Of a stretch of DNA of 64,000 nt, positions 4,565 to 60,162 are shown piece by piece (the first letter of the stretch is position 1; each line of letters starts with the position of its first letter). The stretch is from the IMG/VR virus record IMGVR_UViG_3300045988_117852, positions 75,613-139,612 of that record. The stretch is one strand, 5' to 3'. Source of the stretch: a virus. The notes below the pieces were generated by a model that worked only from the letters and a program-made list of their open reading frames with translations, searched no databases and was not told where the DNA came from. The translations under genes and the position numbers were made by a program.

Positions 4565-4574
4565 GTGGTAAATT

Positions 4575-4853
4575 ATGTTTGATTATGAAAGAAAAGCATT
4601 TGAAAAGAACGTGGAAATTTTAATGGAAGATCATTGCACCCGAAAAGAAGCGGAAAGATTTTTGAAAAATAACACAGTAGTATATGAATTGAAAGATTTT
4701 ACAGAACATTTTGGTCAGTTTATGGAAGATTGGCAAGAAGATAAAGAAGGAATTGAAGCATATAAGAAGATGCTTGAAACTAAAGAACCGATGAGTGGAT
4801 ATAGTTTTGTAGAATATAATGGAAAAGAATATTTGATTAGTTATTGTTTATAG
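4575..4853 (+). CDS. hypothetical protein (92 aa)
   Basis: GTAGGTGG RBS; intact ORF. Confidence 0.4.
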   Translation: MFDYERKAFEKNVEILMEDHCTRKEAERFLKNNTVVYELKDFTEHFGQFMEDWQEDKEGIEAYKKMLETKEPMSGYSFVEYNGKEYLISYCL

Positions 4854-16231: not shown

Positions 16232-17182
16232 ATGGCAGCAACACAGTTTGAAGTTATTGAAACAGTAAACAATAATAACGCAGAAGAATCTGAAACAAAG
16301 ATTAAAAGACGTAAGGATGGAAGTCCTAAATGGACTCGATCTAACAAACAAAAAGGCGTATCATCTTTAGTGTATCCGATCAAGGACAGAAAACAATTTG
16401 CAGCCTTTAATGCATATTTTAGAGACCAGATTGATAAATCGTACACAGAGTACAAACGATATGTAGCTGCCAGAAACAATCTTTTGGTTGCAGTTGGAAA
16501 CAATACAGCATATCGTATCTCTGATATCGTCAGACTCAAATGGGGCGATTTATTAGACGATAAGACTCGTAAGCAGGAAAAGAAAACAAAGAAATTCAGA
16601 ACTGTATACTTTAACGATTTGGTAACTGAAGCAGTGGATATTTTCTTTGAAGCTGTTGCAGGAACTAAATATGATGTCAAGATTGATGGCGAAGTGCCAA
16701 TGGATGATTATGTTTTTGGAACATGTAAGTCTGGATCAGGACACATGACTGAAGCAAATGCTTTGGATTTTGTTAAAAAAGGTGCTAAAGCAGTTGGAAT
16801 TGAGGACAATATTGGTACGCATACATTACGAAAGAACTTTGTGTATTGGACACTTGTCGATCATAAAGATGATCAGAACGTATTGTATACACTTATGAGA
16901 TTATTGAATCATAGTAGCCCTGCAATGACATTTCTGTATGCAACAATCACAGAGGAAGAAACTCATGTATTGTTTGATGATATTGCGCAGACATACAAGG
17001 AAATTATCAGTGGGGCTTTTAACGGATTGAAGGAAAATGTTGTTAATGTGAGTTATGATAGAGTTATGGAGATTATCAAGTTTGCTTATAAGACTGGCAA
17101 AGATGATGCAGATCAAGATGATAGAGTACATGAAGATAATATGCAGGCATTAGAAGAGTTATTGGAAGGAGTAATTGTATGA
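16232..17182 (+). CDS. tyrosine site-specific recombinase (phage integrase family)
   Basis: Catalytic-domain landmarks read in order: RISDIVRLKWGDL (Arg box), THTLRKNF (HxxR), LLNHSSPAMTFLYA (box II with Tyr). Confidence 0.65.
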   Translation: MAATQFEVIETVNNNNAEESETKIKRRKDGSPKWTRSNKQKGVSSLVYPIKDRKQFAAFNAYFRDQIDKSYTEYKRYVAARNNLLVAVGNNTAYRISDIVRLKWGDLLDDKTRKQEKKTKKFRTVYFNDLVTEAVDIFFEAVAGTKYDVKIDGEVPMDDYVFGTCKSGSGHMTEANALDFVKKGAKAVGIEDNIGTHTLRKNFVYWTLVDHKDDQNVLYTLMRLLNHSSPAMTFLYATITEEETHVLFDDIAQTYKEIISGAFNGLKENVVNVSYDRVMEIIKFAYKTGKDDADQDDRVHEDNMQALEELLEGVIV

Positions 17183-18866: not shown

Positions 18867-18880
18867 AAATGGAGAATATT

Positions 18881-19897
18881 ATGAATAATAAAGAATTGAT
18901 ACAAAATTATATAGATTCTCATGTATCAGAATCACGTCGCCCAACATGGAATTGGTTATTTGATTCTGATATTGCGGATGACAATGAATCTGGGTTAACG
19001 TATGCACCAGGTACAATCCAAGAGGCTATATTATCAGATACTAGAGGTAAAAAAACCAAAAGTATGAATTCTATTAAAAAAAGATATGACCAGCTCGTTA
19101 AACTATATACTTATGCATATGAACAAAATTACATTAAATATAATCCATTTATTAATGATAAATTTATAAACTTGCAATTAGCAGTTGATATATATTTTTC
19201 AAATAGAGTTAATGTTAATTATGTTACACCAGATAAAATAAATGCGTTTATTTCGAATCTGATGTCGTGCAATGCATCAGCCGATACCAAATTGAATACT
19301 AGATTTCACATTGTGAGTTTATATAATGGGATAAATGGAAAGGAGTTAAGAAATCTAAAATTCTCAGATATTAATCAAAATGATTTAACAATTCTTGGGA
19401 AACCAGTCTCCAAAGATTTTATCGAGACATTGAATGAATATAAATTGAAAATGGGAGATACGAATATATATGATGATTTTGTATTAATACCACGAAAAAA
19501 ATGTAATAATATAGAAGAATATCAAGCAGAGCAAAAGAGGATATATAATAATGTGCAGTCTCAATTAGAATTAACTGGCAACACTTTATCTTATGAGAAA
19601 TTGACAACCATTGATGTTATTAATTCTGGTTTTATACAATATTTAAAATCTAAAATGGATATCAAGGCAATTGCAGATTTATATTATATTAAATCAAAAG
19701 AAGGAATTGCACGATCTGTAATCGCACGTCAATTTAGTGATATTGCAATTGATTTTTATTATAATTATTATATATCATATAGAATAAAGAAGAAACAATT
19801 TAGTGATCGTCAAACGGTAATCGGTAAAAGTATTGGTTACCTATATAAAGATGAGGACTATAAGAATTATCGTGTACATCAAATCATGGCAGAATAA
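18881..19897 (+). CDS. hypothetical protein, possibly a degenerate recombinase-like protein
   Basis: KELRNLKFSDINQNDLTILGKP resembles the integrase core-binding/Arg-box region, but no HxxR…Y was found. Confidence 0.25.
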   Translation: MNNKELIQNYIDSHVSESRRPTWNWLFDSDIADDNESGLTYAPGTIQEAILSDTRGKKTKSMNSIKKRYDQLVKLYTYAYEQNYIKYNPFINDKFINLQLAVDIYFSNRVNVNYVTPDKINAFISNLMSCNASADTKLNTRFHIVSLYNGINGKELRNLKFSDINQNDLTILGKPVSKDFIETLNEYKLKMGDTNIYDDFVLIPRKKCNNIEEYQAEQKRIYNNVQSQLELTGNTLSYEKLTTIDVINSGFIQYLKSKMDIKAIADLYYIKSKEGIARSVIARQFSDIAIDFYYNYYISYRIKKKQFSDRQTVIGKSIGYLYKDEDYKNYRVHQIMAE

Positions 19898-27049: not shown

Positions 27050-27886
27050 ATGATTAGTATTGGTGGAGTCCCAGTTGTTCCAGAATCTTTTCCAGATGGA
27101 ACGCAAAAAATTGATTTTTCGTTAGGTGCGATATCTCAAGAAATCATAGAAAACAAGACAGCGTATATCACATGGTTATATGAGTCAGATAAAGAGTTGT
27201 TTTCCTTGTTGTGTATTTCTAAAAATATTAAAGAACATTTTCCGTGGTTACAACAAGCATTAGTGATGCCGTATATACCAAATGCAAGATTTGACAGAGT
27301 AAAAGAGCCAAGCGAATGCTTTACATTAAAATATTTTGCAGAAATTATTAATAGTCTTGGATTTGTAAAAGTTATTGTAACTGATCCACATTCCGATGTA
27401 TCTACTGCATTGATTGATCATGTAGAAGTAATCCGTGGAGCATCATATATTACACAAACTTGTAGTAAAGTCCTTAAAGCAGAGTCATCAAGAAATCTTG
27501 TAATTTATTTTCCAGATAGCGGATCACTAAAAAGATATTCTGAATTTGTATCAGATGATTATCCGATTGTCTATGGAATTAAAAATCGTGATTGGAAGAC
27601 AGGAAAAATTCTTGGTATTGAGATTCATGGAGATACAGATAAATTAGATGAGAATACAGCAATTTTAATGATTGATGATATTTGTAGTAAGGGTGGCACA
27701 TTCTACTACGGATCAAAAGAATTAAACAAATACGGTTGTAAAGATATGTATTTGTATGTTACTCACTGTGAAAACACAATTCTTGATGGCGAATTACTAA
27801 AGGAAGATAGTTTGTTTAAAAAAGTGTATACGACACGTAGTATTTTTACCAAAGAGCATGAGAAAGTTGAGGTTATGGAGGGGTAA
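27050..27886 (+). CDS. ribose-phosphate pyrophosphokinase family protein (Prs-like; candidate ADPR-PP synthetase of a phage NAD+ reconstitution pathway)
   Basis: FPDGTQKIDF, MPYIPNARFDR (the Prs PYxxYxRQDR signature) and ILMIDDICSKGGTF (PRPP-binding loop). Confidence 0.65.
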   Translation: MISIGGVPVVPESFPDGTQKIDFSLGAISQEIIENKTAYITWLYESDKELFSLLCISKNIKEHFPWLQQALVMPYIPNARFDRVKEPSECFTLKYFAEIINSLGFVKVIVTDPHSDVSTALIDHVEVIRGASYITQTCSKVLKAESSRNLVIYFPDSGSLKRYSEFVSDDYPIVYGIKNRDWKTGKILGIEIHGDTDKLDENTAILMIDDICSKGGTFYYGSKELNKYGCKDMYLYVTHCENTILDGELLKEDSLFKKVYTTRSIFTKEHEKVEVMEG

Positions 27887-27936
27887 AAATAAGAGACAAA
27901 AGTGATTTAACAGGAAATTATTATGGGAATTGGTTA

Positions 27937-28635
27937 GTGAAAGGATTGTCGAACGAAAAATCCAAAGAAGGAAAGCCTTTATGGATATGTGAATGCCAAT
28001 GTCCTAATAAAACGATCAAACTACATAAACGACATGATTTAACTTCTGGAAAAACAAAATCTTGTGGGTGTATGGCTTCATATTTTAAGAATCAAACTAT
28101 GAAAAAAAATAAAATGAATCGTTATGTTTTTGATGAAGACATGTGTATAATCATTGCCAATAACACTCATAACAAATTTTATATTGATAAAGAAGATTAT
28201 GATTTAATTAAAGATTATATTTGGTATGAAACAGATAGAGGGTATTTGGCTACAACGATTGATCGTAAAACGATATTTCTTCATCGTATGGTTATGCATT
28301 TGTCAATAGATGATGATAGAATTGTCGATCATATTTATCATACCCCAGATGGGAAGAATAGTTTTTACAACAACAGAAAGTCAAATTTAAGAATTACAAC
28401 ACAGGCAAAAAATTGTGCGAATAGAGGACTGAGCAGTAATAATACATCTGGAGTGACAGGAGTATCATGGGATAAAAAATACTGTGTATGGAAGGCTTAT
28501 ATAACTTATAACAAGAAAAGATATTATCTAGGTTCTTATTCAAATATCAATGATGCAATTCAAGCGAGAAGATCAAAGGAAGTTGAATTTTTTGGAGAAT
28601 ATAAATATAAAGAAGCGGAGGAAAAAAATGAGTAA
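27937..28635 (+). CDS. HNH homing endonuclease with AP2-type DNA-binding domain
   Basis: HNH_3-like VDHIYHTPDGKNSFYNNRKSNLRITTQAKN, plus an AP2 module GVSWDKKYCVWKAYITYNKKRYYLGSYSNINDAIQAR. It overlaps the next gene's start by 8 nt. Confidence 0.65.
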   Translation: MKGLSNEKSKEGKPLWICECQCPNKTIKLHKRHDLTSGKTKSCGCMASYFKNQTMKKNKMNRYVFDEDMCIIIANNTHNKFYIDKEDYDLIKDYIWYETDRGYLATTIDRKTIFLHRMVMHLSIDDDRIVDHIYHTPDGKNSFYNNRKSNLRITTQAKNCANRGLSSNNTSGVTGVSWDKKYCVWKAYITYNKKRYYLGSYSNINDAIQARRSKEVEFFGEYKYKEAEEKNE

Positions 28636-30097
28636 TATTTCTTTTATGTTAATGGCAGATACATATAAAAATACAAATCCAGACGCAATGCCTAACGGAT
28701 TATCGAAATTAACTTCATATATCACACCAAGAAAATCAATGTTTAATAACATTAATAAAGTAGTGTTTTTTGGGCTACAAGGATTTATTAAAGAGTTTTT
28801 GATTGATTCAATAAATAATACATTTTTTAATAGAAATAAAGATGAAGTCATAAATGAATATAAAAAATATCTTGATACTCAGATTGGAGCCCAAAGTTAT
28901 AATATCAATAGAATTGAGCAACTATATGATTTAGGATATTTACCAATTGAAATGAAAGCATTACCAGAAGGTTCTCTTGTACCGATGGGGGTTCCGTGTA
29001 TTGAGTTAGTAAATACACACCCTAAGTTTGCATGGGTTGTACAATGGATTGAATGCATGACACAGTCAGAGCTGTATGGAACATGTAATTGGGCTACTAT
29101 GGCTCATGAATATCGAAAACTGGCAAATACCTTTTATGACAAAACTACCGATAATTCTGATCCATCAATGGCTATGGCGGATTTTGGGTTTAGAGGGCTT
29201 GGTGTAAATAATGGGATTAGAGCCAGTAGCTCATGGTTATTGTCTTTTAACAAAACGTCTACGATTCCAGCAATGCAGTATGTTGATAAAATGTATGATG
29301 CAAATTGCGAAAAGAATCATATTGGTATCGGAGCAGTAAGTCTTGAACATGCAACAGTGTGTTGTAATTTGGCAGTTTGTGAAACTGAAGAGAATTTACT
29401 TAGAAGGCTTCTGACAACGGTTTATAAAGATACTTCATTTAGTTATGTGTCAGATAGTTTTGACTATTGGAATCTTATTGATAATATATTACCTAAACTT
29501 AAAAAAGAAATTTTGGAGCATAACGGCAAATTTTTTGTGCGACCTGATAGCGGAGATATAGTAGAAATTTCTGTGCAAACTGTACAAAAACTTTATAAAA
29601 TTTTTGGGGGAAAAATAAATAAAAAAGGATATAAAGAGCTTAATCATAAAATTGGATTAATTTATGGTGATGGTTGCCAGTATGAGAAGATTAAAGAAAT
29701 TTGGACGCAGCTTGAACACCTTGGGTTTGCAGCGAATACAATTTTGTTTGGTGTTGGGGCATTTTCATTCACTGCAATGTCTACAGAAAAAGACGGACTC
29801 GTATGTCTAACGAGAGACACTTTCGGGTTTGCAATGAAGAGCACTGATTGTGTAATAAATGGTAAAGAATATATGATTCAAAAAGATCCTAAGACGGACA
29901 AAACAAAATTAAAAAAGTCACATAAAGGTTTATGCTATATAACCAATGATGATGGTAATTTTGTATGTCATGATGGATATACTTCAGAAAATCTTCCATT
30001 GAATAATCTGCTTGAGACGGTATTTAGAGATGGCAAATTGGTAAAAGAACAGTCATTACAGGAAATTAGAAGAGTTTTAAACGAAGGAGAATTTTAA
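28628..30097 (+). CDS. nicotinamide/nicotinate phosphoribosyltransferase family protein (NAMPT/NadV-like; candidate Namat)
   Basis: LMADTYK at the N-terminus, DFGFRG and IYGDGCQYEKI motifs; ~489 aa, typical for NAMPT. Confidence 0.7.
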   Translation: MSNISFMLMADTYKNTNPDAMPNGLSKLTSYITPRKSMFNNINKVVFFGLQGFIKEFLIDSINNTFFNRNKDEVINEYKKYLDTQIGAQSYNINRIEQLYDLGYLPIEMKALPEGSLVPMGVPCIELVNTHPKFAWVVQWIECMTQSELYGTCNWATMAHEYRKLANTFYDKTTDNSDPSMAMADFGFRGLGVNNGIRASSSWLLSFNKTSTIPAMQYVDKMYDANCEKNHIGIGAVSLEHATVCCNLAVCETEENLLRRLLTTVYKDTSFSYVSDSFDYWNLIDNILPKLKKEILEHNGKFFVRPDSGDIVEISVQTVQKLYKIFGGKINKKGYKELNHKIGLIYGDGCQYEKIKEIWTQLEHLGFAANTILFGVGAFSFTAMSTEKDGLVCLTRDTFGFAMKSTDCVINGKEYMIQKDPKTDKTKLKKSHKGLCYITNDDGNFVCHDGYTSENLPLNNLLETVFRDGKLVKEQSLQEIRRVLNEGEF

Positions 30098-30114
30098 GAG
30101 AGGAGATATAAAAC

Positions 30115-30885
30115 ATGAGTTTTAATGCAGCAGAAACCAAAGACAGATTAGTACAGTGGATTAGAGATTGGTTTAAAGTTAATGGAAGATGGTGTAATGC
30201 CGTTGTAGGAATTTCAGGCGGTAAAGATTCATCAGTTGTCGCTGCCTTATGTGTCGAAGCACTAGGTAAAGATCGAGTTATTGGAATTATGATGCCACAG
30301 GGTGTGCAGAGTGATATTGAGTATTCTCAGATGCTATGTGATCATCTAGGAATTGAACATTACACAGTTAATATTTTTAATGCTTGCAGAGATATTAAAC
30401 ATGAAATCAGAGATGAATTAGGCGGTAAATGGAGTAAACAGAGTGCCACAAATTTACCTGCTCGTATCCGAATGGCTACATTGTATGCTTTTGCACAGAG
30501 TATGAATGGAAGAGTAGCAAATACATGTAATTTATCTGAAGATTGGGTCGGATATGCAACAAGATATGGAGATTCAGCCGGAGATTTTAGTCCATTAAGT
30601 GATCTGACTGTGACAGAAGTTAAAGCAATTGGTAGAGTTCTGGGACTTCCAACAGAGTTAATCGAAAAAACACCTACTGATGGATTATGCGGTAAGACAG
30701 ATGAAGATAATCTTGGATTTACATATGATATGTTAGACGAATATCTGAGAACTGGAGTATGTAAAGATGAAGCAGTGAGACAGATCATTGACGAGATGCA
30801 TGAGAAGAATGTATTTAAACTTGCTCCAATGCCTAAATTTATATCTGGCATGTGGATCGAGGCAGGAATGGAGTTGGATGATTAA
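30115..30885 (+). CDS. nadE: NH3-dependent NAD+ synthetase
   Basis: ISGGKDSSVVAAL PP-loop (SGGxDS); 256 aa, typical NadE size. Confidence 0.7.
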   Translation: MSFNAAETKDRLVQWIRDWFKVNGRWCNAVVGISGGKDSSVVAALCVEALGKDRVIGIMMPQGVQSDIEYSQMLCDHLGIEHYTVNIFNACRDIKHEIRDELGGKWSKQSATNLPARIRMATLYAFAQSMNGRVANTCNLSEDWVGYATRYGDSAGDFSPLSDLTVTEVKAIGRVLGLPTELIEKTPTDGLCGKTDEDNLGFTYDMLDEYLRTGVCKDEAVRQIIDEMHEKNVFKLAPMPKFISGMWIEAGMELDD

Positions 30886-33625: not shown

Positions 33626-33763
33626 GGAAACATAGCTCAGTTGGTAGAGCAGGCAATACATACATTCTTTTTCTACCTCCGTATAAGTATTTTTATATTA
33701 TTTACATTTTAATTTTTCATCACATATAAATTGCCGACGCAGGTTCGATCCCTGTTGTTTCCA
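33626..33763 (+). tRNA. tRNA-like gene interrupted by a ~70-nt AT-rich insertion in the anticodon arm (anticodon uncertain)
   Basis: Perfect 7-bp acceptor stem (GGAAACA/TGTTTCC), canonical D-arm GCTCAGTTGGTAGAGC, T-arm GCAGG-TTCGATC-CCTGT, and anticodon-stem halves GGCAA (33652-56) and TTGCC (33731-35) 74 nt apart. Confidence 0.55.
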
Positions 33764-38008: not shown

Positions 38009-38041
38009 AATCTGAGTTTTATGTAAAGTGAGGTGATTAAT

Positions 38042-38362
38042 ATGGGAGCCAATATTGAGTTCGCTATTGGCTATGCGATTGGGTTTTGTATCGTTGGAGT
38101 GATTGTATTTCTGAGATACGAAAGAAAGATGGATCGGATGAGGCAGACAAATGTAAATTTGATCTTAGATAAGATGTCGTTCATGGCTGATGCGAACGAC
38201 AAAGAAAATGGTACATGTAATAAGGAAGAAACTCGTTCAGATGTTAAGGACGCAGTGAAGTATGCAATGAAGAAAAGTCATCCAGATAATGGTGGTAGTG
38301 CAGAGGATTTTCGAAAATTTAGAGAGTTATATGAAGAAATGGAAGGTAAAGGAGTGAAGTAG
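38042..38362 (+). CDS. membrane-anchored J-domain (DnaJ-like) protein
   Basis: TM helix (FAIGYAIGFCIVGVIVFL) and a J-domain HPD motif in YAMKKSHPDNGGSAEDFRKFRELYE. Confidence 0.45.
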   Translation: MGANIEFAIGYAIGFCIVGVIVFLRYERKMDRMRQTNVNLILDKMSFMADANDKENGTCNKEETRSDVKDAVKYAMKKSHPDNGGSAEDFRKFRELYEEMEGKGVK

Positions 38363-38365
38363 TAT

Positions 38366-39973
38366 ATGACAGCTAAAGATAACACAATGGTAATTACTAG
38401 AAAAATCGCTTTGATTCCTGTCGCAAGTGAGCGAAAAGAATGGAAGAAAAGAATCAATTCTTTCTTAGAAAAAGATTTTCCAAGGAAAATTGAAGCAAAG
38501 AAGAAGCAGATCAAGAATACAAGCAAACCAGAAAAGAAAGACGGGTATAAACAGCAGCTCACAGAATTAGAAAAGCAATATGAAGATTTCAAAGAAAATA
38601 GAATCGAAGAATATACTCAGAAAATGGTTAACGATTATACATATGGTCTTGTGAGAGATGCAATGGAGAGCGAAGCAAGACGAAAGAACTACATTTTGTC
38701 TTACATATACACAAAAATGGTACAGGATGGAGTTGGATATATGCCAACATTGAAAGATAAATATACATGGATTAAAGAAAATATTAATGTTGCATATAGA
38801 CGAAAAGGAAGTAATAAAGGAAGCATCTTTGATGATGTTGACATTGACAATCCATTAGGTGGATACGGAACATGTTTCTCTCAGATATTAACAAGCAAGA
38901 TCAAAGATTTGGTTAAACAGGGATTGTTAGACGGCAAAGTGTCAATTCCGAATTTTAAAATTGACTCACCGTTTACAATTGCAAAAGCGTATTTTGATCT
39001 ATATCACGAATATGAAGATATAACAGAATTAAAGAAAAATATTCAAAATTCTGATTGTAAATTGTATTGTGGATTAGGTAACAAAGGTATTCCGACCATT
39101 GCAAATTTCAAAGTAAATATTGGACACAAAGGAAATAGAGATGAGTTGATTTCTACATTGTTAAGAATATTTACTGGAGAATACGAGATTTGTGGAAGTA
39201 CAATGCAGATTTCTAAAACAAAAATTATTTTAAATTTATCAATTAGAATTCCTAAAACACAACTTGAATTAGATGAGGACACTGTAGTTGGTGTCGATCT
39301 TGGAGTTGCAATTCCAGCGGTATGTTCTTTGAATAATAACAAATATAAGAGAGAGTATATTGGTAGTAGTGACGATTTTATTAGAATGAGAACGAAATTA
39401 CAGCATGAGAAACAGCAGTTACAGAAAGCGTTAAAAATGTCAAAAGGCGGACATGGAAGAAAAAGAAAGTTGTTGGCATTAGAAAGATGTAAAAAGAAAG
39501 AATATAACTTTGTTGAAACATACTGTCACAAAGTAAGCAAGAAAGTGGTTGATTTTGCGGTCAAGAATAAAGCGAAATATATCAATGTAGAAAATCTTTC
39601 GGGATATGATTCAAGTAAATTCATTTTAAGAAATTGGAGTTTTTATAAACTTCAGCAATACATAGAATATAAAGCTGCAAAATATGGCATTGAAGTTAGA
39701 AAAGTAAATCCTTCATTTACATCTCAAGTGTGTAGTTTCTGCGGACATTGGGAAGACGGGCAGAGAAAAGATCAAGCAACATTTGTTTGTGGTAATCCTG
39801 ATTGTGAAAGTCATAAGTTGCATATGGTAAATGCAGACTACAATGCATCAAGAAATATTGCGATGTCAACATTATTTACAAGTGATAAATTTCAATTTTG
39901 TAAAAAGACAATGCAAGATGCGGCTGAGTATTACGGTATTCAATTAGATAATGAAGATCAATTAGCAGCGTAA
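38366..39973 (+). CDS. TnpB/Cas12-like RNA-guided-nuclease-family protein (RuvC split domain plus zinc finger), 535 aa
   Basis: RuvC-I VGVDLGV, RuvC-II …YINVENL…, OrfB Zn-ribbon CSFCGH…CGNPDC, RuvC-III NADYNASRNIA. The N-terminus MVITRKIALIP resembles the TnpB start. There is no upstream left-end/TnpA. Confidence 0.7.
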   Translation: MTAKDNTMVITRKIALIPVASERKEWKKRINSFLEKDFPRKIEAKKKQIKNTSKPEKKDGYKQQLTELEKQYEDFKENRIEEYTQKMVNDYTYGLVRDAMESEARRKNYILSYIYTKMVQDGVGYMPTLKDKYTWIKENINVAYRRKGSNKGSIFDDVDIDNPLGGYGTCFSQILTSKIKDLVKQGLLDGKVSIPNFKIDSPFTIAKAYFDLYHEYEDITELKKNIQNSDCKLYCGLGNKGIPTIANFKVNIGHKGNRDELISTLLRIFTGEYEICGSTMQISKTKIILNLSIRIPKTQLELDEDTVVGVDLGVAIPAVCSLNNNKYKREYIGSSDDFIRMRTKLQHEKQQLQKALKMSKGGHGRKRKLLALERCKKKEYNFVETYCHKVSKKVVDFAVKNKAKYINVENLSGYDSSKFILRNWSFYKLQQYIEYKAAKYGIEVRKVNPSFTSQVCSFCGHWEDGQRKDQATFVCGNPDCESHKLHMVNADYNASRNIAMSTLFTSDKFQFCKKTMQDAAEYYGIQLDNEDQLAA

Positions 39974-40001
39974 ATTATATGAAAATATATGGCATGTTTT
40001 G

Positions 40002-40042
40002 GAGGGAGTTCGATGCTCCCTCAGCCATAAAATAATATGGCT
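40002..40042 (+). ncRNA. two adjacent perfect hairpins (GAGGGAG-N7-CTCCCTC and AGCCATA-N6-TATGGCT) directly 3' of the nuclease gene; a candidate guide-RNA scaffold element or terminator
   Basis: Read directly. No U-tract follows them, and they sit at the start of the first repeated unit. Confidence 0.35.
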
Positions 40043-40135
40043 ATGCCAAGAGATAGGAAAATTTTTCACTCACTAAAATTTGTGTAATTGAACAGAACGT
40101 AAAGTTCTGCATTGTATACATAATAAAGATTTGAG

Positions 40136-40237
40136 GTTTGAGAATTATTGAAAATTACACAGATACAAAACCATTCCCTGTATGCATAAGCACAATCCCA
40201 TGTTTGAGAACTATTGAAAATTACATAAAATGTATGG
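40136..40237 (+). CRISPR. CRISPR-like mini-array 1: 36-nt repeat, 30-nt spacer, degenerate terminal repeat
   Basis: Repeat GTTTGAGAATTATTGAAAATTACACAGATACAAAAC (40136-40171). Spacer CATTCCCTGTATGCATAAGCACAATCCCAT (40172-40201). The second copy from 40202 matches 24/25 nt, then diverges. Confidence 0.55.
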
Positions 40238-40375
40238 CATGTTTTGAGAAATTTTATATCCAATGTAAATTTTCTGATCATAAGAAATATGATTATGCCA
40301 AAAGTGAGATTTAAAAATAATACTCACTAAAACCTATGTGATAAAGTATCAAAATTGGACAAGGATGAAATTGAG

Positions 40376-40543
40376 GTTTGATACCTATTAAAAATTACAT
40401 AGGTACAAAACATGTTTTGATCTTCAGCACCTGATACAAAGTTTGATACCTATTAAAAATTACATAGGTACAAAACACAATCGGCATCCGATCTTTTCGC
40501 TGCCTGAGTTTGATACCTATTAAAAATTACACAAAGTGTGTGG
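40376..40543 (+). CRISPR. CRISPR-like mini-array 2: two identical 36-nt repeats, 29- and 31-nt spacers, degenerate third repeat
   Basis: Repeat GTTTGATACCTATTAAAAATTACATAGGTACAAAAC at 40376-40411 and 40441-40476. Unique spacers at 40412-40440 and 40477-40507. The third copy from 40508 matches 25 nt, then diverges. Confidence 0.65.
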
Positions 40544-40642
40544 TGTGTTCTGGAGATTTTATCTCGTCTATCAAATAGGTAGATACGCCAAAAGTGAGAC
40601 ATGAATGTACTCACTAAAATCTATGTTAGTTGAATATTTGAG

Positions 40643-40732
40643 GTTTAAGACCTATCAAATTTAACACAGGTACAGAACTCTGACGTGCTTCATTTTATTC
40701 GATCGTGCGTAAAAGACCTATCAAATTTAACA
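40643..40732 (+). CRISPR. CRISPR-like mini-array 3: 36-nt repeat, 30-nt spacer, degenerate terminal repeat
   Basis: Repeat GTTTAAGACCTATCAAATTTAACACAGGTACAGAAC (40643-40678). Spacer TCTGACGTGCTTCATTTTATTCGATCGTGC (40679-40708). Partial repeat at 40709-40732. Confidence 0.5.
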
Positions 40733-40757
40733 AAATCAAAAGGAAATTAAACGAAAA

Positions 40758-40925
40758 ATGAAATCAAGACAGCAACGTGAACAGGAAATAAAACGATTCT
40801 TTGATCGGCTGAGTCCCAGTGAATTGGACAGGCTGTTAGAAAGAAATGGAATTAATGATAAAGAGTCTGATGAGGCTCTTGCATATAGAATTATTAAAGA
40901 AGAAATTGAGAAAGGAGAGATATAA
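40758..40925 (+). CDS. hypothetical small protein (55 aa)
   Basis: ATG 40758 to stop 40923-25, overlapping the next start (ATAATG). Under 60 aa. Confidence 0.3.
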   Translation: MKSRQQREQEIKRFFDRLSPSELDRLLERNGINDKESDEALAYRIIKEEIEKGEI

Positions 40926-41230
40926 TGAACAACTTCTTATATATTGAATCACGGGAAGAAGAGAATACATCCCTCGATTCTAAACGTGTTTTATTGAATG
41001 AAGAAAATTACAAACATATTATTTCATCATTAGATCATTATCCACCGACGGCAGACGAAGTTAAGAAAGCAATTTGTATTTTGACTGGACGATTGATCTA
41101 CAGAAGCGTTTGGAATATGGAATCTGATATTGATAGTTTAAATATGAGTTTATCACCGCCAAAAGAAATGACGGTTGCAGAAATTGAAAAGGAACTTGGT
41201 TATAAAGTTAAGATTGTAAAGGAGAAATAA
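40925..41230 (+). CDS. hypothetical protein
   Basis: GGAGAG RBS. Confidence 0.4.
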   Translation: MNNFLYIESREEENTSLDSKRVLLNEENYKHIISSLDHYPPTADEVKKAICILTGRLIYRSVWNMESDIDSLNMSLSPPKEMTVAEIEKELGYKVKIVKEK

Positions 41231-41541
41231 TGCCAATGGCAAAAAAGAAACAAGGAATGTCGTTTGAAATGATGATGCAAAATATGGAAATTAATCCAAG
41301 GCAATTGTATCGTCGTAGTTCGTGGAAGAAGACACGAACAACTTATGATTATGTGTTTATGATGTGCGAAGAAGAATTAAATGAGATTATTCCATTTGAT
41401 AAAAAATATAAAATGAAACCACTCTTATGTAGAGACCAAAATGGAGTTATAACATTGGGATGGTTGCCTACACAAGAGGATATTTTCGCAAATGATTGGG
41501 TTGAGCAAGGATGGGATTTTAACAGTAAAAGGAAGAGGTGA
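41230..41541 (+). CDS. hypothetical protein
   Basis: ORF, translationally coupled to the previous gene. Confidence 0.4.
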   Translation: MPMAKKKQGMSFEMMMQNMEINPRQLYRRSSWKKTRTTYDYVFMMCEEELNEIIPFDKKYKMKPLLCRDQNGVITLGWLPTQEDIFANDWVEQGWDFNSKRKR

Positions 41542-41549
41542 ATAATTAA

Positions 41550-41849
41550 TTGAATTTTATAAAAGCAATGATCGCAATAAAAAAAGACAAAACTACTATA
41601 AGAAGAGGCATTTGGGGAAAGGAAAAGTATTTGAAAATTTATTCGTCAGAATTAACTAATGTTTATTTTGAGTGTAATGATATGGGTGAATATAAGCCAG
41701 ATTCAATTATTTTTTTATTTGATAAAGAAAACGCAGAAGTTTGGATACCTCTTGCGGAAGATGTATATGCAGATGACTGGGAAATATATGTTGAATCGGT
41801 TAAAAAGCCAAATCAATCAAAAGCAAAGGTGAAGGAGAAAGAAGAATGA
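41550..41849 (+). CDS. hypothetical protein (TTG start as called)
   Basis: GAGGTG lies 9 nt upstream of TTG 41550. Confidence 0.35.
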   Translation: MNFIKAMIAIKKDKTTIRRGIWGKEKYLKIYSSELTNVYFECNDMGEYKPDSIIFLFDKENAEVWIPLAEDVYADDWEIYVESVKKPNQSKAKVKEKEE

Positions 41850-42259
41850 AAGTGTTTTTAGGCGGAACATGCTCTGGATGGAAGTGGAGAGACCAGCTAC
41901 AGAAGATGTTGGATTGTGATTATTATAATCCAATCGTAAAAAATTGGAGTGAAGAAGACCGACTGCGGGAAGTCAAGGAAAGAGAAGAATCTGACTATGT
42001 TCTGTATGGCATTACGAATGGTATTAAAGGAGTATACAGTATTGCAGAAGTAGTTGATGATTCTCATAAGCGACCAGATAAAGTGATCTTTCTTAATCTC
42101 TATCAGGAACAAAAGAATAAAGAATCTAAGCAGATGAGCCACAGTTTAAAAGCAGTCGAAAATTTATTGAAAGAAAATCGTATTAAAGTATATTCTGGCG
42201 TACATGCTATGCAGGATGTTGCAGATTTTCTTAACTTAATGAATAAACGAAAGGGGTAA
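41846..42259 (+). CDS. nucleoside 2-deoxyribosyltransferase-like protein
   Basis: VFLGGTCSG near the N-terminus and a DYVLYGI…G core are consistent with the Nuc_deoxyrib_tr fold. Weaker match than the 46464 paralogue. Confidence 0.35.
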   Translation: MKVFLGGTCSGWKWRDQLQKMLDCDYYNPIVKNWSEEDRLREVKEREESDYVLYGITNGIKGVYSIAEVVDDSHKRPDKVIFLNLYQEQKNKESKQMSHSLKAVENLLKENRIKVYSGVHAMQDVADFLNLMNKRKG

Positions 42260-42265
42260 AGAAGA

Positions 42266-43219
42266 ATGAAATGTTTTTATCATGTTGATCAGGACGGCAT
42301 CGTATCTGGTTTCTATGTCAGAAAAGCTTGCGAACAGCGAGGTTTAGAGTTTAAACCAGAAGACTTCCGAAAAATTAATTACGGCATGAAATTCCCGTTT
42401 CATGACATTGAGCAGGATGAATTTGTGTTTATTGTAGACTACAGTATTGAGCCAGAAGAGATGTGGCAGTTGCTCAGTATTACAAAGAATGTATTTTGGA
42501 TCGACCATCATCAGTCTACGATTGAAGCGTATAAAGATTTCAAGTGTGATGTAAAAGGAATCAGAATTACTGGAGCGGGTATTTCAGGAGCGAATTTGAC
42601 ATGGTTATATTTTAAATATATGTGTGATGAAAATTGGGAGCAAATTGAGAGGACGGATGAGAAAAATGTAAAAAGATTACTCAATATATATAAATATAAA
42701 GCAGATTATCCAAAACTGGCAGAATATACAGCCATGTGGGATACATTTTATTTTGGTGAAACGTCAAAACAATTCGTAAAAGCATTTCACTATGCATTTG
42801 AATCGTATGATTTTGATGCGTTAAGTCCATTGCTAAACACGTTAAATAAAGATCAAGGAATTTATGAAGCAGCAAAAATTATTGGTGATATGATAGCAGA
42901 TGGCTTATCAATTATTGAGTATTTAGCAGCAAATGCAGAACAATATCTTAGAGCATATGGTTTTGAAACCATATTTGAGGGACATAAAGTCTATGCAATC
43001 AACCGAGCATTAATCAATTATGATTTCTTTGAATCTATTGATGCTTCTAAATATGATATGTTCATTGGTTTTTCGTTCAATGGAAGTATGTGGGAATATC
43101 AGTTGCGATCCGCAGAACAGGATAAAGTAAATGTGTATGAGCTTGCTGTGAAATATGGTGGCGGTGGTCATCCAAATGCAGCTGGGTTCAGAAGTGATAA
43201 GTATGTGTTAGGAGTGTGA
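42266..43219 (+). CDS. DHH-DHHA1 phosphoesterase (NrnA-like nanoRNase / pAp phosphatase family)
   Basis: DHH motifs HVDQDG, FIVDYS and WIDHHQ, plus the DHHA1 GGGGHPNAAGF signature near the C-terminus. Confidence 0.65.
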   Translation: MKCFYHVDQDGIVSGFYVRKACEQRGLEFKPEDFRKINYGMKFPFHDIEQDEFVFIVDYSIEPEEMWQLLSITKNVFWIDHHQSTIEAYKDFKCDVKGIRITGAGISGANLTWLYFKYMCDENWEQIERTDEKNVKRLLNIYKYKADYPKLAEYTAMWDTFYFGETSKQFVKAFHYAFESYDFDALSPLLNTLNKDQGIYEAAKIIGDMIADGLSIIEYLAANAEQYLRAYGFETIFEGHKVYAINRALINYDFFESIDASKYDMFIGFSFNGSMWEYQLRSAEQDKVNVYELAVKYGGGGHPNAAGFRSDKYVLGV

Positions 43220-50879: not shown

Positions 50880-51419
50880 ATGTCGTTGAAATTAAATGAC
50901 GAACAGAGAAAATTGGTAGAACAAAATCATAATTTGATTTACTCTGCTATGACAAAATGCGGTATCCGCAGACAAGATTTTGATGACTATTATGGATTCG
51001 CTGCCATTGGGTTGTGTAAGGCAGCAATTGATTATGATGAATCCAAAGCTAAATCATTCTCTACATATGCATATAAATGTATGCAAAAAGAAATTATAGC
51101 ATATACTCGATGGAGATTTGCAGATAAAAGAGATGAACGACTTACCTTATCGTACAATCAGTTAATGAATGATTTAGATGAAGACGAAAAAGAATATTCT
51201 TTTTTGTTAGCTGATAAAAAAAATAATGAAAAAAAATTAATTTTCTTTTTGTGTTTTGATGAGCAAATGCGAATACTAAATAATAAGGACAGGTTAATTA
51301 TTAATTTAAAGGCAAAAGGGTATACGAACGAAGAAATAGGAAATACCCTTGGTGTTACATATCAAGCAATTCAATATCAATTGAAAAAAATTAAAAATAA
51401 ATTAATCCCATCCTTATAA
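50880..51419 (+). CDS. sigma-70-family RNA polymerase sigma factor (second copy)
   Basis: Region-2 YGFAAIGLCKAAIDYDESKAKSFSTYAYKCM and region-4 HTH YTNEEIGNTLGVTYQAIQYQL. Same architecture as 43992..44525. Confidence 0.6.
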   Translation: MSLKLNDEQRKLVEQNHNLIYSAMTKCGIRRQDFDDYYGFAAIGLCKAAIDYDESKAKSFSTYAYKCMQKEIIAYTRWRFADKRDERLTLSYNQLMNDLDEDEKEYSFLLADKKNNEKKLIFFLCFDEQMRILNNKDRLIINLKAKGYTNEEIGNTLGVTYQAIQYQLKKIKNKLIPSL

Positions 51420-57306: not shown

Positions 57307-58900
57307 CATTTTGAACGATTGCAGAGGACTTTTTGAAGATGAGGTGTTTGAAATTATCATGCAGGAGCGTGGTATTGACGATCCAGAGCATTTTCTAAAT
57401 CCTACGGAAGATGATTTACTTTCTCTTGATGACTTAAAAAATATTGATAAAGCATATAAGCTTTTGGTAGATGCAGTATACAAAGATAAACGTATTGCAG
57501 TACATTTTGACACAGATACTGACGGAGTTGCAGCGGGAACTATTATTACACGACATTTAAAAAACATGACAGAAAATCCAGTAGATGTATACATTAACCG
57601 AGGCAAACAGCATGGATTAGCAAATCAGGACATTGCTAAGTTTTATGGGTATGATTTACTGATTGTCGTTGATAGTTTGGATAAAGACGAGACTCAGTAT
57701 AAGGATTTAAAAGAAACAGGAGTTGATGTGATTGTGTTAGACCACCATGCCATCGATCCAGATGTTCCTTATGACAACTATTGCACATTAGTTTCTTCTC
57801 AGAGAGAATATGAAAATCCACAGCTATCTGGCGCAGGTGTTGTTTGGAAGTTTTGCAAGTATATTGATGAGCAGAATGGTACAGATTATGCAGATGATTT
57901 GGTCGATCTAGCAGGTGTTGGGCTGATTGCAGATATGATGGATATGAGAGTAATGGAGAATCGTTACATTGTATCCGAAGCTTTGAAAGAAATTAGAAAT
58001 CCTGCGATTAAGAAGATTATTGGTGGATTTGAATTCAACAGCACAGCAGTTGCTTTTAGTATTGCACCGTTGGTTAATGCTGCAAACAGAATGGATCAGA
58101 ATGAAATTGCCCTAAATGCTTTCCTTGAAGACGACAATAAAAAGTTACGAGGATATATTAAACAGTTAAAGCAATGCAAAGAAGACCAAAATGAAGAGGT
58201 CGCACAGCTGATGCCAATGATTGCGGAACAGTGTGAAGCTCAGAGTGATAAAAAGATGATCACAACTTTTATCGACACTGATTATGGTATTTCTGGGTTA
58301 ATTGGAAACAAATTGCTTGAAAAATACCAGAAGCCGATTCTTGTGCTAAAGAAAAATGAAGATACATATGCAGGATCTATGCGAGCAGTTGGTGTAAAAG
58401 ACTTCCGACAGATGTGTAATAACAGTCAGTTGGCTGAAGCAAATGGACATGAACTTGCCAGTGGTATTGAAATTCCTAGAAAGAACTTCGCTGAGTTCAC
58501 CTCTTATATAGAAGAAACTCTTCCAGATAAGCCAGAAGATACAACAGTTGATGTCGATATTATGCTTGATATTTCAGACATCACAAGAAAAATGGTTGAC
58601 ATGATTAAGAAAATTGATCGTATTTCTGGACAAGGATTTAAACCTGTAAGAGTTTATATTGAAGAGATTGACGACTATGACATTGGTCAGATGAGCAATT
58701 ATAAACATCTTGTCCTGAAACCATGTAACAATGATAAATTGTGGATCATTAAATGGAACTACGATGGATCATTTGAGGATATGGAAGACCACTCTATGAT
58801 GAATGATGAATTTTGTGCTGTAACTACTCTTGATTGTGGATTCTTTGGCAGAAAGTTTGTGCTGAAAGCAGTGTGTGATTCACTTGAAGAGGTGGGATGA
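57281..58900 (+). CDS. recJ: RecJ-like DHH-family single-strand DNA exonuclease
   Basis: VHFDTDTDGVAAG (motif I/II), LIVVDS, and VIVLDHHAID (the DHH motif). Its start overlaps the primase end. Confidence 0.65.
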   Translation: MKTSKKKYNILNDCRGLFEDEVFEIIMQERGIDDPEHFLNPTEDDLLSLDDLKNIDKAYKLLVDAVYKDKRIAVHFDTDTDGVAAGTIITRHLKNMTENPVDVYINRGKQHGLANQDIAKFYGYDLLIVVDSLDKDETQYKDLKETGVDVIVLDHHAIDPDVPYDNYCTLVSSQREYENPQLSGAGVVWKFCKYIDEQNGTDYADDLVDLAGVGLIADMMDMRVMENRYIVSEALKEIRNPAIKKIIGGFEFNSTAVAFSIAPLVNAANRMDQNEIALNAFLEDDNKKLRGYIKQLKQCKEDQNEEVAQLMPMIAEQCEAQSDKKMITTFIDTDYGISGLIGNKLLEKYQKPILVLKKNEDTYAGSMRAVGVKDFRQMCNNSQLAEANGHELASGIEIPRKNFAEFTSYIEETLPDKPEDTTVDVDIMLDISDITRKMVDMIKKIDRISGQGFKPVRVYIEEIDDYDIGQMSNYKHLVLKPCNNDKLWIIKWNYDGSFEDMEDHSMMNDEFCAVTTLDCGFFGRKFVLKAVCDSLEEVG

Positions 58901-60162
58901 TTATGGCAGGAAAAGAAGTATTTTGTTCAGTCTGCGGTTTATCATCTACTTTGGACGGACATTTTTGGAAAGAAAAGAAGTTGTGCAACAGACACAATAT
59001 GCAGTTAGAAAAACATGGAAAACTGTTAGATAAAGATATAGTAATCCCTAAAAAGAGACATAGATGGACTCCAGAAGAAGAAACCAGATTAGAAGAGTTG
59101 TATAAACAAGGAGTTTCTTTTGAAAAAATTAGTAAACAAATGAATCTATCCGTGGCAGCCATAGCGGCTCGAAGTCGTCATTTGAATCTTGGCAATAAGT
59201 ATATGAGGTCTAATAATCCTAATTTTAAAGCCACATATCAGGATTATGATTGGTGTTATGAAAGATATGTTGTTAAGGGAATGACTCATCAAGAAATGGC
59301 AGATGAATGTGGTGCCTCGTTAAGAGTTATTCAGAAATGGTGTTCTGAAGTTCATAAATTAAATTGTTGGACTTTCAAAAACAATAAGACATTAACCGAT
59401 AAACAGTATCAAATTATTTTATTTGGCACATTAGGAGATGGGCATATTGATAAGAGAGAGATGCAACCTTTGTATATTGAATGTCATTCTATAGCAGAAA
59501 AGGATTACGTGTTTTGGAAATATGAAGAATTAAAAGATTTATGTAACTCTGAGCCAAAGTATTATGAAGGTGGCTATAAAGATTTTGGTTCTGGTACAAA
59601 GTATTGGTGTAAACCACATTACAGATTTGAGACAAGAATTATTAATCAATTGAAGGACATTCGAGACATGCCAAGAATCAATAAGATTTGGCAATTGAAT
59701 GAATTTGGATTATCTCTTCATTGCTTAGACGATGGATGCAGAGGTAAATCAGCGTGGGAATTATGTTTGGCAGAATATACTCAGCAAGAAATTGATTTAT
59801 ATATCAAGCTGTGTAAAAAGAGATTTGGGTTATATGCTAAACAGCAGACAGATAAAAGATATATAAGATTTGATTCAGATTCAAGTAGAATTATTGATCA
59901 AATTATTTTAAACAATATTCCTAATTCGCTTGACATTATCAAAAAGAAGATATTAGAAAACGATAAAATTTCTAAAAAAGTAAGATACATTTATGTTGTC
60001 ATGCAGAACGGAGAACAGATTGGTTTATCTACATATTGTAGATCTCATGGTATTCCATATGAAAAGACAAGAAAATATGTCATTGAGCACAATATCTCTC
60101 GAATTCAAGAAGCTGATCTACTAAATAGATTAAAAGCTGGAGGATTAATGAATGCGGTATAA
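58897..60162 (+). CDS. LAGLIDADG-family homing endonuclease with N-terminal zinc-finger/HTH region
   Basis: Two LAGLIDADG-like motifs (ILFGTLGDGHID and LSLHCLDDGCRG), plus CSVCG…C and an HTH (VSFEKISKQMNLSVAAIAARSRHL). Confidence 0.55.
   Translation: MIMAGKEVFCSVCGLSSTLDGHFWKEKKLCNRHNMQLEKHGKLLDKDIVIPKKRHRWTPEEETRLEELYKQGVSFEKISKQMNLSVAAIAARSRHLNLGNKYMRSNNPNFKATYQDYDWCYERYVVKGMTHQEMADECGASLRVIQKWCSEVHKLNCWTFKNNKTLTDKQYQIILFGTLGDGHIDKREMQPLYIECHSIAEKDYVFWKYEELKDLCNSEPKYYEGGYKDFGSGTKYWCKPHYRFETRIINQLKDIRDMPRINKIWQLNEFGLSLHCLDDGCRGKSAWELCLAEYTQQEIDLYIKLCKKRFGLYAKQQTDKRYIRFDSDSSRIIDQIILNNIPNSLDIIKKKILENDKISKKVRYIYVVMQNGEQIGLSTYCRSHGIPYEKTRKYVIEHNISRIQEADLLNRLKAGGLMNAV

Follow-up and report, generated by a model that had tools for sequence, protein, structure and literature searches.

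A probable phage-encoded type V-F1 (Cas12f1) CRISPR system with three tandem tracrRNA and mini-array cassettes

We analyzed a 64,000-nucleotide (nt) stretch of viral DNA, positions 75,613 to 139,612 of IMG/VR record IMGVR_UViG_3300045988_117852 (the window), in which a gene for a small RuvC nuclease is followed by three short CRISPR arrays. We consider it probable that this locus is a phage-encoded type V-F1 (Cas12f1) CRISPR system, with one effector gene and three tandem guide cassettes aimed at other mobile elements. Each cassette would consist of a gene for a trans-activating CRISPR RNA (tracrRNA) and then, on the same strand, a mini-array of one or two spacers. The enzyme type is already known; what appears distinctive is the tandem arrangement of tracrRNA and mini-array cassettes with coevolving RNA pairs, the renewal of spacers without adaptation genes, and the aiming of guides at small plasmids and rival phages.

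The effector protein

A preliminary description of the window had noted an open reading frame (ORF) of 535 amino acids (aa) with RuvC and Zn-ribbon features; the ORF is present, and its motifs and cysteines could be located (Table 1). Among solved structures, the best matches by sequence are CnCas12f1 (8HR5; E-value, 4.7e-66) and Al3Cas12f (9NZO/9NZR; 3.5e-65), followed by RhCas12f, AsCas12f, OsCas12f, SpCas12f1, and Un1Cas12f1; Cas12f1 structures other than the first two stand at 1e-52 to 1e-27. This PDB search matched six Cas12f1 orthologues, from 4.7e-66 to 1e-27; ISDra2 TnpB reaches 1e-6, and Cas12p (9JFS) reaches 2.8e-4 over 160 residues. An AlphaFold (AF2) model built from a 20-sequence alignment, with a predicted local distance difference test score (pLDDT) of 84.9, gave the same order of matches in Foldseek. 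The top match was again 8HR5 (3e-27), then Al3Cas12f, AsCas12f, SpCas12f1, and Un1Cas12f1, and the top 22 were all Cas12f, with Cas12p at rank 27 (5.6e-10 versus 3e-27 for Cas12f).

Pfam matches are Cas12f1-like_TNB (2.4e-19) and OrfB_IS605 (4.6e-08), and the sole NCBIfam model above its cutoff is the generic "RNA-guided endonuclease TnpB family" (164 bits; cutoff, 100). Each of the three RuvC motifs matches its counterpart in the active nuclease CnCas12f1 exactly or nearly so, and the D-E-D triad appears intact. Among 20 homologues of 50 to 67% identity, no change is seen at E409, at D491, or at any of the four Zn cysteines, and at least 90% keep D311. The protein has the effector architecture of type V-F1: it falls within 400 to 700 aa, is homologous to Cas12f1, and combines a WED/REC N-terminal half with a split RuvC domain and a TNB Zn ribbon. 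Judged by its sequence and predicted fold, it is a Cas12f1 (type V-F1, the former V-U3 lineage) and not a new type. The earlier suggestion of a previously undescribed type does not survive the two best structural matches, which are also the top fold matches. Nor does the idea of an intermediate between TnpB and a type V effector, as absence of adaptation genes already defines the V-U3/Cas12f1 group, whose loci consist of nuclease, tracrRNA region, and array (Karvelis 2020, PMC7229846).

The reported absence of cas1, cas2, and tnpA was borne out in the tested set of window ORFs (which took in 19 of the 20 that reach 280 aa and part of the small ones), in which no Cas1, Cas2, or Cas4 family (Pfam/PHROG) was found; a complete adaptive locus (cas1 plus cas2, with or without cas4) is not present in these ORFs. 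Likewise, cas1, cas2, and cas4 are not recorded within ±10 kb of three relatives in precomputed Pfam tables.

Homologues of the protein number 1391 at an E-value of 1e-20 or less, and relatives are encoded on 123 IMG/VR viral contigs, mostly of 46 to 216 kb. The closest genome-encoded relatives sit in Clostridium sp. AF37-5, Roseburia, Lachnoclostridium, Butyrivibrio, and Lachnospiraceae assemblies, which makes Lachnospiraceae the likely host group. Distant Bacteroidota relatives on genome contigs (loci L106-L168; 25 to 35% identity) align only to about residue 444 and therefore lack the RuvC-III/TNB end. These proteins fit published nuclease-dead, exapted Cas12f homologues and are unrelated to the function of the phage family.

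Table 1. Features of the cas12f1 locus and of spacer targets (window positions unless another contig is named; tracrRNA modules are predicted)
Feature	Position	Strand	Details
cas12f1	38366..39973	+	535-aa ORF; upstream ribosome-binding site (RBS) AAAGGAG
RuvC motifs of Cas12f1			VGVD311LG, NVE409NL, NAD491YNASRN
Zn-ribbon cysteines of Cas12f1			C456, C459, C475, C480
tracrRNA module 1	39990..40089	+	P1 5' strand 39990-39995, pseudoknot loop GTTTTG 39996-40001, P1 3' strand 40043-40048; two inserted hairpins; stem 2 imperfect, 5' arm within 40050-40057, 3' arm within 40067-40074; anti-repeat 40078-40089; linker to array up to 40135
Mini-array 1	40136..40225	+	repeat 40136-40171; spacer S1 40172-40201 CATTCCCTGTATGCATAAGCACAATCCCAT; truncated repeat 40202-40225
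tracrRNA module 2	40235..40342	+	P1 40235-40240/40295-40300, pseudoknot loop GTTTTG 40241-40246; stem 2 arms within 40303-40309/40322-40328; anti-repeat ACCTATGTGAT 40332-40342
Mini-array 2, first part		+	repeat 40376-40411; spacer S2a 40412-40440
Mini-array 2, second part		+	repeat 40441-40476; spacer S2b 40477-40507 ACAATCGGCATCCGATCTTTTCGCTGCCTGA; truncated repeat 40508-40531
tracrRNA module 3	40541..40628	+	P1 TGGTGT 40541-40546/ACGCCA 40585-40590, pseudoknot loop GTTCTG 40547-40552; stem 2 arms within 40593-40599/40609-40615; anti-repeat 40619-40628
Mini-array 3	40643..40732	+	repeat 40643-40678 GTTTAAGACCTATCAAATTTAACACAGGTACAGAAC; spacer S3 40679-40708; truncated repeat 40709-40732
L169 protospacer of S2b			ACAATCGGCATCCGATCTTTTCGCTGTCTGA; native flank CTACACTTCG
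Spacer matches to L169			L008 26/30; L010 29/31; L012 30/30 and 26/29; L015 29/30 and 26 of 31 nt
Hydrophobic-peptide ORF, L169	~9244-9330	-	MSIFSSFLLSVLASVVAYYICKWLDGDK
Hydrophobic-peptide ORF, L175 (LC817946.1)	4515-4601		MSSTLLSFIMSVLASVVAYYLCKWLDRHK

Guide cassettes and RNA pairing

The 0.8-kb noncoding stretch first described after the ORF corresponds to the 760 nt that follow the cas12f1 stop codon, and it does hold three arrays. The intervals before the arrays (39974-40135, 40226-40375, and 40532-40642) turn out to be three homologous modules of ~100 nt, which we predict to be three tracrRNA genes, one per array, that is, a classical dual-RNA V-F1 system in triplicate. The repeats have the 36-nt length originally given and fall into three variants (GTTTGAGAATTATTGAAAATTACACAGATACAAAAC, GTTTGATACCTATTAAAAATTACATAGGTACAAAAC, and GTTTAAGACCTATCAAATTTAACACAGGTACAGAAC for arrays 1, 2, and 3); the GTTTGA...ACAAAAC pattern ascribed to them needs amending, as the third variant starts GTTTAA and ends ACAGAAC. 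Repeats 2 and 3 hold a short internal palindrome, which repeat 1 lacks. Spacers S1, S2a, S2b, and S3 (30, 29, 31, and 30 nt) are mutually unrelated, and all three arrays terminate in a 24-nt 5' fragment of their own repeat, so that spacer length, spacer uniqueness, and a degenerate closing repeat were correctly noted. The repeats are not a chance pattern, since repeats of this family lie beside the homologous gene in 75 of the 80 viral loci compared.

The modules share an order of elements. Each opens with a hairpin, P1, formed by TGGCAT...ATGCCA in modules 1 and 2 and by TGGTGT...ACGCCA in module 3, a compensatory change. The first segment of the P1 loop is complementary to the last six repeat bases of its own cassette (GTTTTG/CAAAAC in 1 and 2, GTTCTG/CAGAAC in 3), and all three modules carry extra hairpins within this loop. 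A second stem, AGTGAG...CTCACT, comes next, and then, after AAAA, an anti-repeat complementary to repeat nt 19 to 30.

A search with nhmmer using the three modules found 90 module copies in the 80 loci retained, each directly 5' of an array. The covariation alignment (A2) was drawn from 133 nonredundant units of module plus first repeat; eight mis-extracted units were removed, and the 73 distinct rows aligned are cassettes from related phages. Two intermolecular helices, loop with repeat end and anti-repeat with repeat, played no part in cutting out the cassettes. In these 73 cassettes, pairing reaches 90% in the loop:repeat-end helix, where 5 of 6 pairs have changed on both sides, and 92% in the 11-bp anti-repeat:repeat helix, where 7 of 11 have done so. 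The covariation score is 0.374 versus 0.162 in shuffles, a value reached by none of 500 shuffles, and pairing falls to 26 to 50% when, as a control, the partner is slid by 1 to 3 columns. Besides the two combinations found in the window, loop and repeat end occur as ATTCAG/CTGAAC, ATTTCG/CGAAAC, ATTTCA/TGAAAC, ATTTGG/CCAAAC, ATTTTA/TAAAAC, and ACTTTG/CAAAGC, among others. RNAalifold, given 22 unedited tracrRNA cores, arrived de novo at both stem 2 and a P1 with a loop of 6 nt, and 9 of the 15 pairs that it found are compensatory; this run and the two intermolecular helices make up the independent evidence of pairing.

Cognate pairs are also matched within loci. In multicassette loci, the best pairing partner of a tracrRNA is its own repeat in 50 of 54 cassettes, and the three window modules score 17, 17, and 16 of 17 pairs with their cognate repeats versus 13 to 17 for noncognate combinations. 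Folded as single sequences, cassettes 1 to 3 exceed shuffles in stability (z, -3.4, -4.9, and -2.2). In these folds stem 2 is complete in cassettes 2 and 3, the anti-repeat:repeat helix forms in 2 and partially in 3, P1 forms in cassette 1, and the loop:repeat-end helix forms in cassette 3. Covariation and a layout like that of Al3Cas12f point to a tracrRNA whose anti-repeat is complementary to the repeat, as in type V-F1. Rfam scans by E-value of the locus gave nothing meaningful, and scans at gathering threshold of the whole window and of L169, a contig discussed below, gave no relevant RNA family.

Just upstream of tracrRNA 2 lies a promoter-like site (40204-40231; TTGAGA-16-TAAAAT) whose -35-like TTGAGA comes from the truncated repeat of array 1. 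The "degenerate" terminal repeat may double as part of the promoter of the next cassette.

Spacer turnover and targets

Multiple cassettes with diverged repeats are the norm of the family and not a peculiarity of the window, as is evident from array counts within ±3 kb in 80 viral loci: none in 5, one in 15, two in 32, three in 25, and four or five in 3, giving at least two in 60 of the 80. Family arrays sit on either side of the cas12f gene, and 127 of 167 hold a single spacer, with a maximum of four.

The 165.7-kb IMG/VR record IMGVR_UViG_3300045988_128818 encodes an identical Cas12f with different spacers, making the window its sister genome. In five loci whose Cas12f is 96 to 100% identical to that of the window, the three tracrRNAs are near-unchanged and some or all arrays carry unrelated spacers; the window thus has what type V-F1 loci have beside the effector, CRISPR arrays with variable spacers, here three. 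Across the near-identical loci, cassette 1 varies in its spacer and in the 5' part of its repeats; the final 20 repeat nt and the tracrRNA that follows are invariant. This is what recombinational exchange of spacer-containing blocks would produce, suggesting such exchange; adaptation in trans would also be possible.

Searches for targets covered the phages themselves and outside elements. No self-target was found in the window, with S1 searched at up to 3 mismatches and no protospacer seen outside the arrays, and the same held when the window spacers and ~136 family spacers were compared by BLAST with the window and with every locus retrieved. In IMG/VR, scans for exact 22-nt matches (5' parts of S1, S2a, S2b, and S3; 3' parts of S1 and S2a) returned the arrays themselves only, and PLSDB gave no match to the four window spacers. 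A metagenome collection, scanned with S2b alone, yielded two contigs with a protospacer lacking flanking repeats.

S2b matches a protospacer on contig L169 at 30 of 31 positions. A 55-nt terminal overlap indicates that L169 is a circle of ~12,967 bp; its guanine-plus-cytosine content is 34.5% versus 33.5% for the window. It has genes for a DUF6017/HTH_36 replication initiator, ParA, a small RHH protein, a resolvase, an HNH endonuclease, and two further proteins, one radical-SAM and one SprT-like; phage structural genes were not seen on it, and it matches no known phages. By this gene content, L169 is a plasmid. The radical-SAM protein was considered as a viperin and rejected, the PADLOC match being weak and partial. 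Six more spacers from four other phage lineages match L169 (Table 1), and three L169 protospacers, that of the window included, lie within 200 bp of one another in the rep-par intergenic region. Small plasmids from Waltera intestinalis, Mediterraneibacter gnavus, and C. perfringens also carry a ~110-nt piece of the rep-par region in conserved form.

Spacers of other relatives reach further elements. An L035 spacer matches, at 30 of 30 positions, the RBS and start of the small hydrophobic-peptide ORF described below in the 5.6-kb W. intestinalis plasmid LC817946.1, and an L031 spacer matches six Heliusvirales phages of Lachnospiraceae at 29 of 29 positions and two more at 28 of 29. Taken together, turnover between near-identical phages and matches to outside targets indicate that the spacers of the window family are real guides. 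The core of the preliminary description, a virus-encoded RNA-guided RuvC nuclease with genuine CRISPR mini-arrays, holds up in light of the Cas12f1 matches, spacer turnover, targets, and IMG/VR viral classification.

Three observations on these plasmids stand beside the target matches. The conserved plasmid piece encodes a hydrophobic peptide of 28 to 29 aa, whose ORF comes with a -10 box, an RBS, and a terminator of its own and carries no annotation in the plasmid records, and the region of this ORF is a hot spot of phage spacers; we considered the 28-aa peptide as a type I toxin and rejected this, as NCBIfam matches to a clostridial type I toxin model were sub-threshold only. The first spacer of array 2 in the sister phages L001 and L002 occurs in versions that differ at 3 of 30 positions (ACGCTGTCAACTGCCGCTCATGTGTATCCC and ACGCTGTTAACTGCCTCTCATGTGTACCCC), the second of which (ACGCTGTTAACTGCCTCTCATGTGTACCCC) is matched by L169 4624-4653 at 26 of 30; these spacers seem to track variants of one plasmid site. 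Finally, a 63-nt stretch is 98% identical between the window (51230-51292, within a sigma-70 r2/r4 ORF at 50880-51419) and L169 (6471-6533), which suggests recent DNA exchange and hence coresidence of phage and plasmid in one host.

In the mechanism that we propose, each tracrRNA would fold into P1 and stem 2, its anti-repeat would pair with repeat nt ~19 to 29/30, and the 6-nt P1 loop would pair with the last 5 to 6 repeat nt, forming a pseudoknot beside the guide as in the solved Al3Cas12f guide RNA. The duplex of tracrRNA and CRISPR RNA (crRNA) would load Cas12f, presumably as a dimer, and the complex would cut double-stranded DNA matching the spacer. Guides would be aimed at mobile elements of the same host group, Lachnospiraceae, mainly small plasmids, often in the part where the conserved gene for a small hydrophobic peptide lies between rep and par, but rival temperate phages as well. 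The phage would not make new spacers itself; blocks of spacer plus repeat 5' half would be exchanged by recombination, host adaptation machinery would supply spacers, or both.

A more far-reaching proposal, which we put forward tentatively and regard as possible though doubtful, is that each tracrRNA and its mini-array form a mobile, self-contained guide module. Such modules would be gathered, duplicated, and exchanged among large Lachnospiraceae phages by recombination in the invariant repeat 3' half and tracrRNA, renewing spacers without Cas1-Cas2. The modules would destroy interfering resident small plasmids, for instance those with type I toxin-antitoxin or other plasmid-borne defense, and the diverged tracrRNA:repeat pairs, all loading one Cas12f, would prevent recombination between tandem copies.

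Alternative explanations, gene neighborhood, and known systems

A working phage-borne V-F1 system against resident plasmids and rival phages is, on the sequence evidence, the most likely explanation, and several observations must be set against it. Viral identity rests on the IMG/VR classification and PHROG matches, and the ORFs tested in the 64-kb window showed neither a capsid nor a terminase gene. The pairing percentages of P1 and stem 2 in alignment A2 are circular, because the cassettes were cut out by means of these two elements. In the window, module 1 has a degraded stem 2, which keeps ~3 of 5 pairs (GAGATAGG versus CACTCAC; 40050-40074), and relatives L010-L016 keep it intact (GTGAGG/CACTCAC); cassette 1 may be weaker owing to this loss. 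The search of all four spacers that the preliminary description proposed placed S2b, with its sole mismatch to the L169 protospacer at position 27, and gave no target for S1, S2a, and S3 in IMG/VR, INPHARED, or PLSDB. Type V-F1 is characterized in part by a T- or C-rich PAM on the 5' side and by cutting of double-stranded DNA by an asymmetric homodimer with one guide RNA. The nine protospacer 5' flanks (TTCG, TTTC, TCAA, TTGC, TCGC, TAAT, TAAT, TTTT, and TACA), which come from orthologues of 49 to 100% identity, yield no single consensus for a protospacer-adjacent motif (PAM). Promoter evidence is weak, as promoter-like sites are fewer than in shuffles, and a uniform -10/-35 promoter sought in front of the modules was not found, nor was a uniform -10 element.

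Among rival explanations, we give almost no credence to an IS200/IS605-type TnpB element with omega-RNA, in which the "repeats" would be transposon-end remnants. The NCBIfam name is solely TnpB family (164 bits), Pfam reports OrfB_IS605, and one source calls the homologues "IS605 OrfB family transposase"; however, ISDra2 TnpB stands at 1e-6 versus 5e-66 for Cas12f1, and no tnpA or other transposase appears among the window ORFs tested. In such elements the omega-RNA overlaps the tnpB 3' end, transposon ends and usually tnpA are present, and the insertion site fixes the guide. In the window, the RNA modules begin after the stop codon and not within the 3' end of the gene, the guides are bounded by 36-nt repeats and differ between near-identical genomes, and the locus is syntenic among phages, not multicopy. 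The preliminary description had named a canonical IS605 TnpB with insertion sequence (IS)-end remnants as what would overturn it; with no IS ends and no recurring identical "spacers," that reading is already refuted. A decaying, nonfunctional relic passively carried by the phage is extremely unlikely. The imperfect stem 2 of tracrRNA 1 and the three spacers with no known target would suit a relic, but hundreds of homologues, some with as little as ~50% identity, retain an intact ORF, four helices are maintained by compensatory changes, and spacers are renewed between 96 to 100% identical genomes.

We see little chance that the modules are only leaders or promoters and that the nuclease uses crRNA alone, like Cas12j, Cas-lambda, and Cas12n. 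Two separate module segments covary with the repeat 3' end, which a leader has no reason to do, the order of module elements is that of an experimentally verified tracrRNA, and all solved close relatives use a tracrRNA; set against this are a promoter-like site overlapping the start of module 2 and the palindrome in repeats 2 and 3, which repeat 1 does not have. It is also highly improbable that the arrays are decoys (RNA anti-CRISPRs) or guides for a host-encoded Cas12f, with the phage nuclease unrelated to them. Such roles are known for mini-arrays and solitary repeats of viruses (PMC11656645), and the window arrays are tiny. Yet in 75 of 80 loci the arrays are coupled, physically and evolutionarily, to the phage cas12f and matching tracrRNAs, spacers match plasmids and phages, and decoys would not need spacer turnover. 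Much the same small weight goes to a repurposed RNA-guided DNA binder, TldR-like or resembling an exapted dCas12f, that would regulate transcription and silence targets without cutting. Several protospacers do fall in the promoter, 5' untranslated region, or start-codon region of a small plasmid gene, the distant Bacteroidota relatives end before RuvC-III (matches to residue 444), and the solved nuclease-dead Cas12f 9N9C is among the matches. The phage family differs in that the D-E-D triad and Zn ribbon are conserved throughout (D311 in at least 90%, the rest invariant) and the full C-terminal RuvC-III/TNB region aligns to active nucleases.

As for the surroundings, all window ORFs of at least 150 aa lie on the + strand except two, both overlapping longer + strand ORFs. 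Those tested include a DNA polymerase, a DnaB-like helicase, a RecJ-like exonuclease, anti-repressors, and integrase-family proteins. When 20 kb of the window was compared with INPHARED phages by megablast, no match was found. Two genes resembling Tad2, the Thoeris anti-defense protein, lie directly downstream of the CRISPR locus (41230-41541 and 41550-41849), followed at 41846-43219 by a nucleoside 2-deoxyribosyltransferase-like gene and a DHH phosphoesterase. Upstream, at 27050-30885, genes for Prs, NAMPT, and NAD synthase look like a counter-defense set for reconstitution of nicotinamide adenine dinucleotide (NAD), and the relative L172 has Tad4 nearby. By predicted gene content, cas12f sits in an anti-defense (counter-defense-type) neighborhood. 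A small ORF just upstream of cas12f (38033-38362) has an HPD...F..F..L.E motif that is J-domain-like by eye, with no Pfam match at an E-value of 0.01 or less. Two integrase-family (tyrosine recombinase) ORFs occur in the early region (16232-17182 and 18869-19897) and may serve in lysogeny, dimer resolution, or inversion. A LAGLIDADG-type homing-endonuclease ORF with HTH/Myb-like N-terminal parts (58897-60162) lies between the RecJ-like and DNA polymerase genes and overlaps each by a few bases. Rfam reports a tRNA match spanning 138 nt (33626-33763; 43 bits, above the gathering score), and ARAGORN finds no tRNA in the window; this may be an interrupted or unusual tRNA gene.

If the system works as proposed, it offers a natural case of one miniature Cas12f serving several diverged tracrRNA:crRNA pairs, useful for studying guide RNA tolerance and for multiplexing compact editors. 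The family also provides a data set on the long-standing question of how, with no adaptation module, spacers come to be renewed in effector-only type V systems and in viral mini-arrays, the data being phages that are nearly identical yet differ by swaps of spacers and of repeat 5' halves. It ties widespread large phages of human-gut Firmicutes to probable targets, small Lachnospiraceae plasmids and Heliusvirales phages, in a phage-plasmid conflict testable in culture.

Phage-encoded CRISPR has reportedly been described by Seed in 2013 and by Al-Shayeb in 2022, and the CRISPR-Cas of ICP1, said to be a complete type I-F system with an adaptation module, reportedly acts against the Vibrio cholerae PLE. 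Like ICP1, the window phage appears to pair a phage-borne effector with spacers aimed at another mobile element of the same host; unlike ICP1, it has a single miniature effector, no adaptation genes found, and plasmid and phage targets. Virus-borne mini-arrays copy host repeats and rely on host Cas proteins (Medvedeva 2019; Faure 2019, reviewed in PMC11656645). The window shares with them one- or two-spacer arrays on a viral genome, some family spacers being directed against other viruses, but encodes its effector and predicted tracrRNAs beside the arrays; host repeats were not directly searched. Cas12p, the "hacker" family with a GTN PAM (bioRxiv 10.1101/2025.01.20.633832; PDB 9JFS), is likewise a phage-borne miniature Cas12 with a tracrRNA, yet it is a different family, to which the window protein is a remote relative. 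The Cas12p, Cas-delta, and TranC papers were considered as prior descriptions of the window family and set aside, as they concern other families. No description of this Cas12f family or of tandem tracrRNA-array cassettes was found in the literature searched, whose scope did not include the Al-Shayeb 2022 survey.

The closest known system is that of CnCas12f1 from Clostridium novyi (8HR5), the best match by sequence and fold, likewise a single effector with RuvC and Zn ribbon from Clostridia in a locus ordered nuclease, tracrRNA region, and array, without cas1, cas2, and cas4. The window protein differs in length (535 aa versus 497 aa), shares ~30% identity over the fold-search alignment, has no significant sequence match over its first ~170 residues, and belongs to a large phage with three tracrRNA-array cassettes versus one. 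Al3Cas12f/Cas12f-MG119/uCas (PMC13186708; bioRxiv 10.1101/2023.02.03.527072) resembles the window in its 36-nt repeats and 29- to 32-nt spacers, in a same-strand tracrRNA that lies between the nuclease gene and the array, and in having no further cas genes. The window repeats differ in ending ...ACAAAAC and not ...AUAUCCAAC, and its modules differ in their extra P1-loop hairpins, multiple cassettes per locus, and arrays of 1 to 2 spacers. The single guide RNA (sgRNA) of Al3Cas12f runs GGCGC-GUUGGA-GCGCC, GUUUGAG...CUCAAA, and anti-repeat, with the crRNA ending A-UCCAAC (PMC13186708 supplement). The predicted guide RNAs of the window follow the same order, with a hairpin whose loop pairs with the last 6 repeat nt, a GUNGAG...CUCAN stem, an A-rich joint, the anti-repeat, one unpaired A, and the pseudoknot partner.

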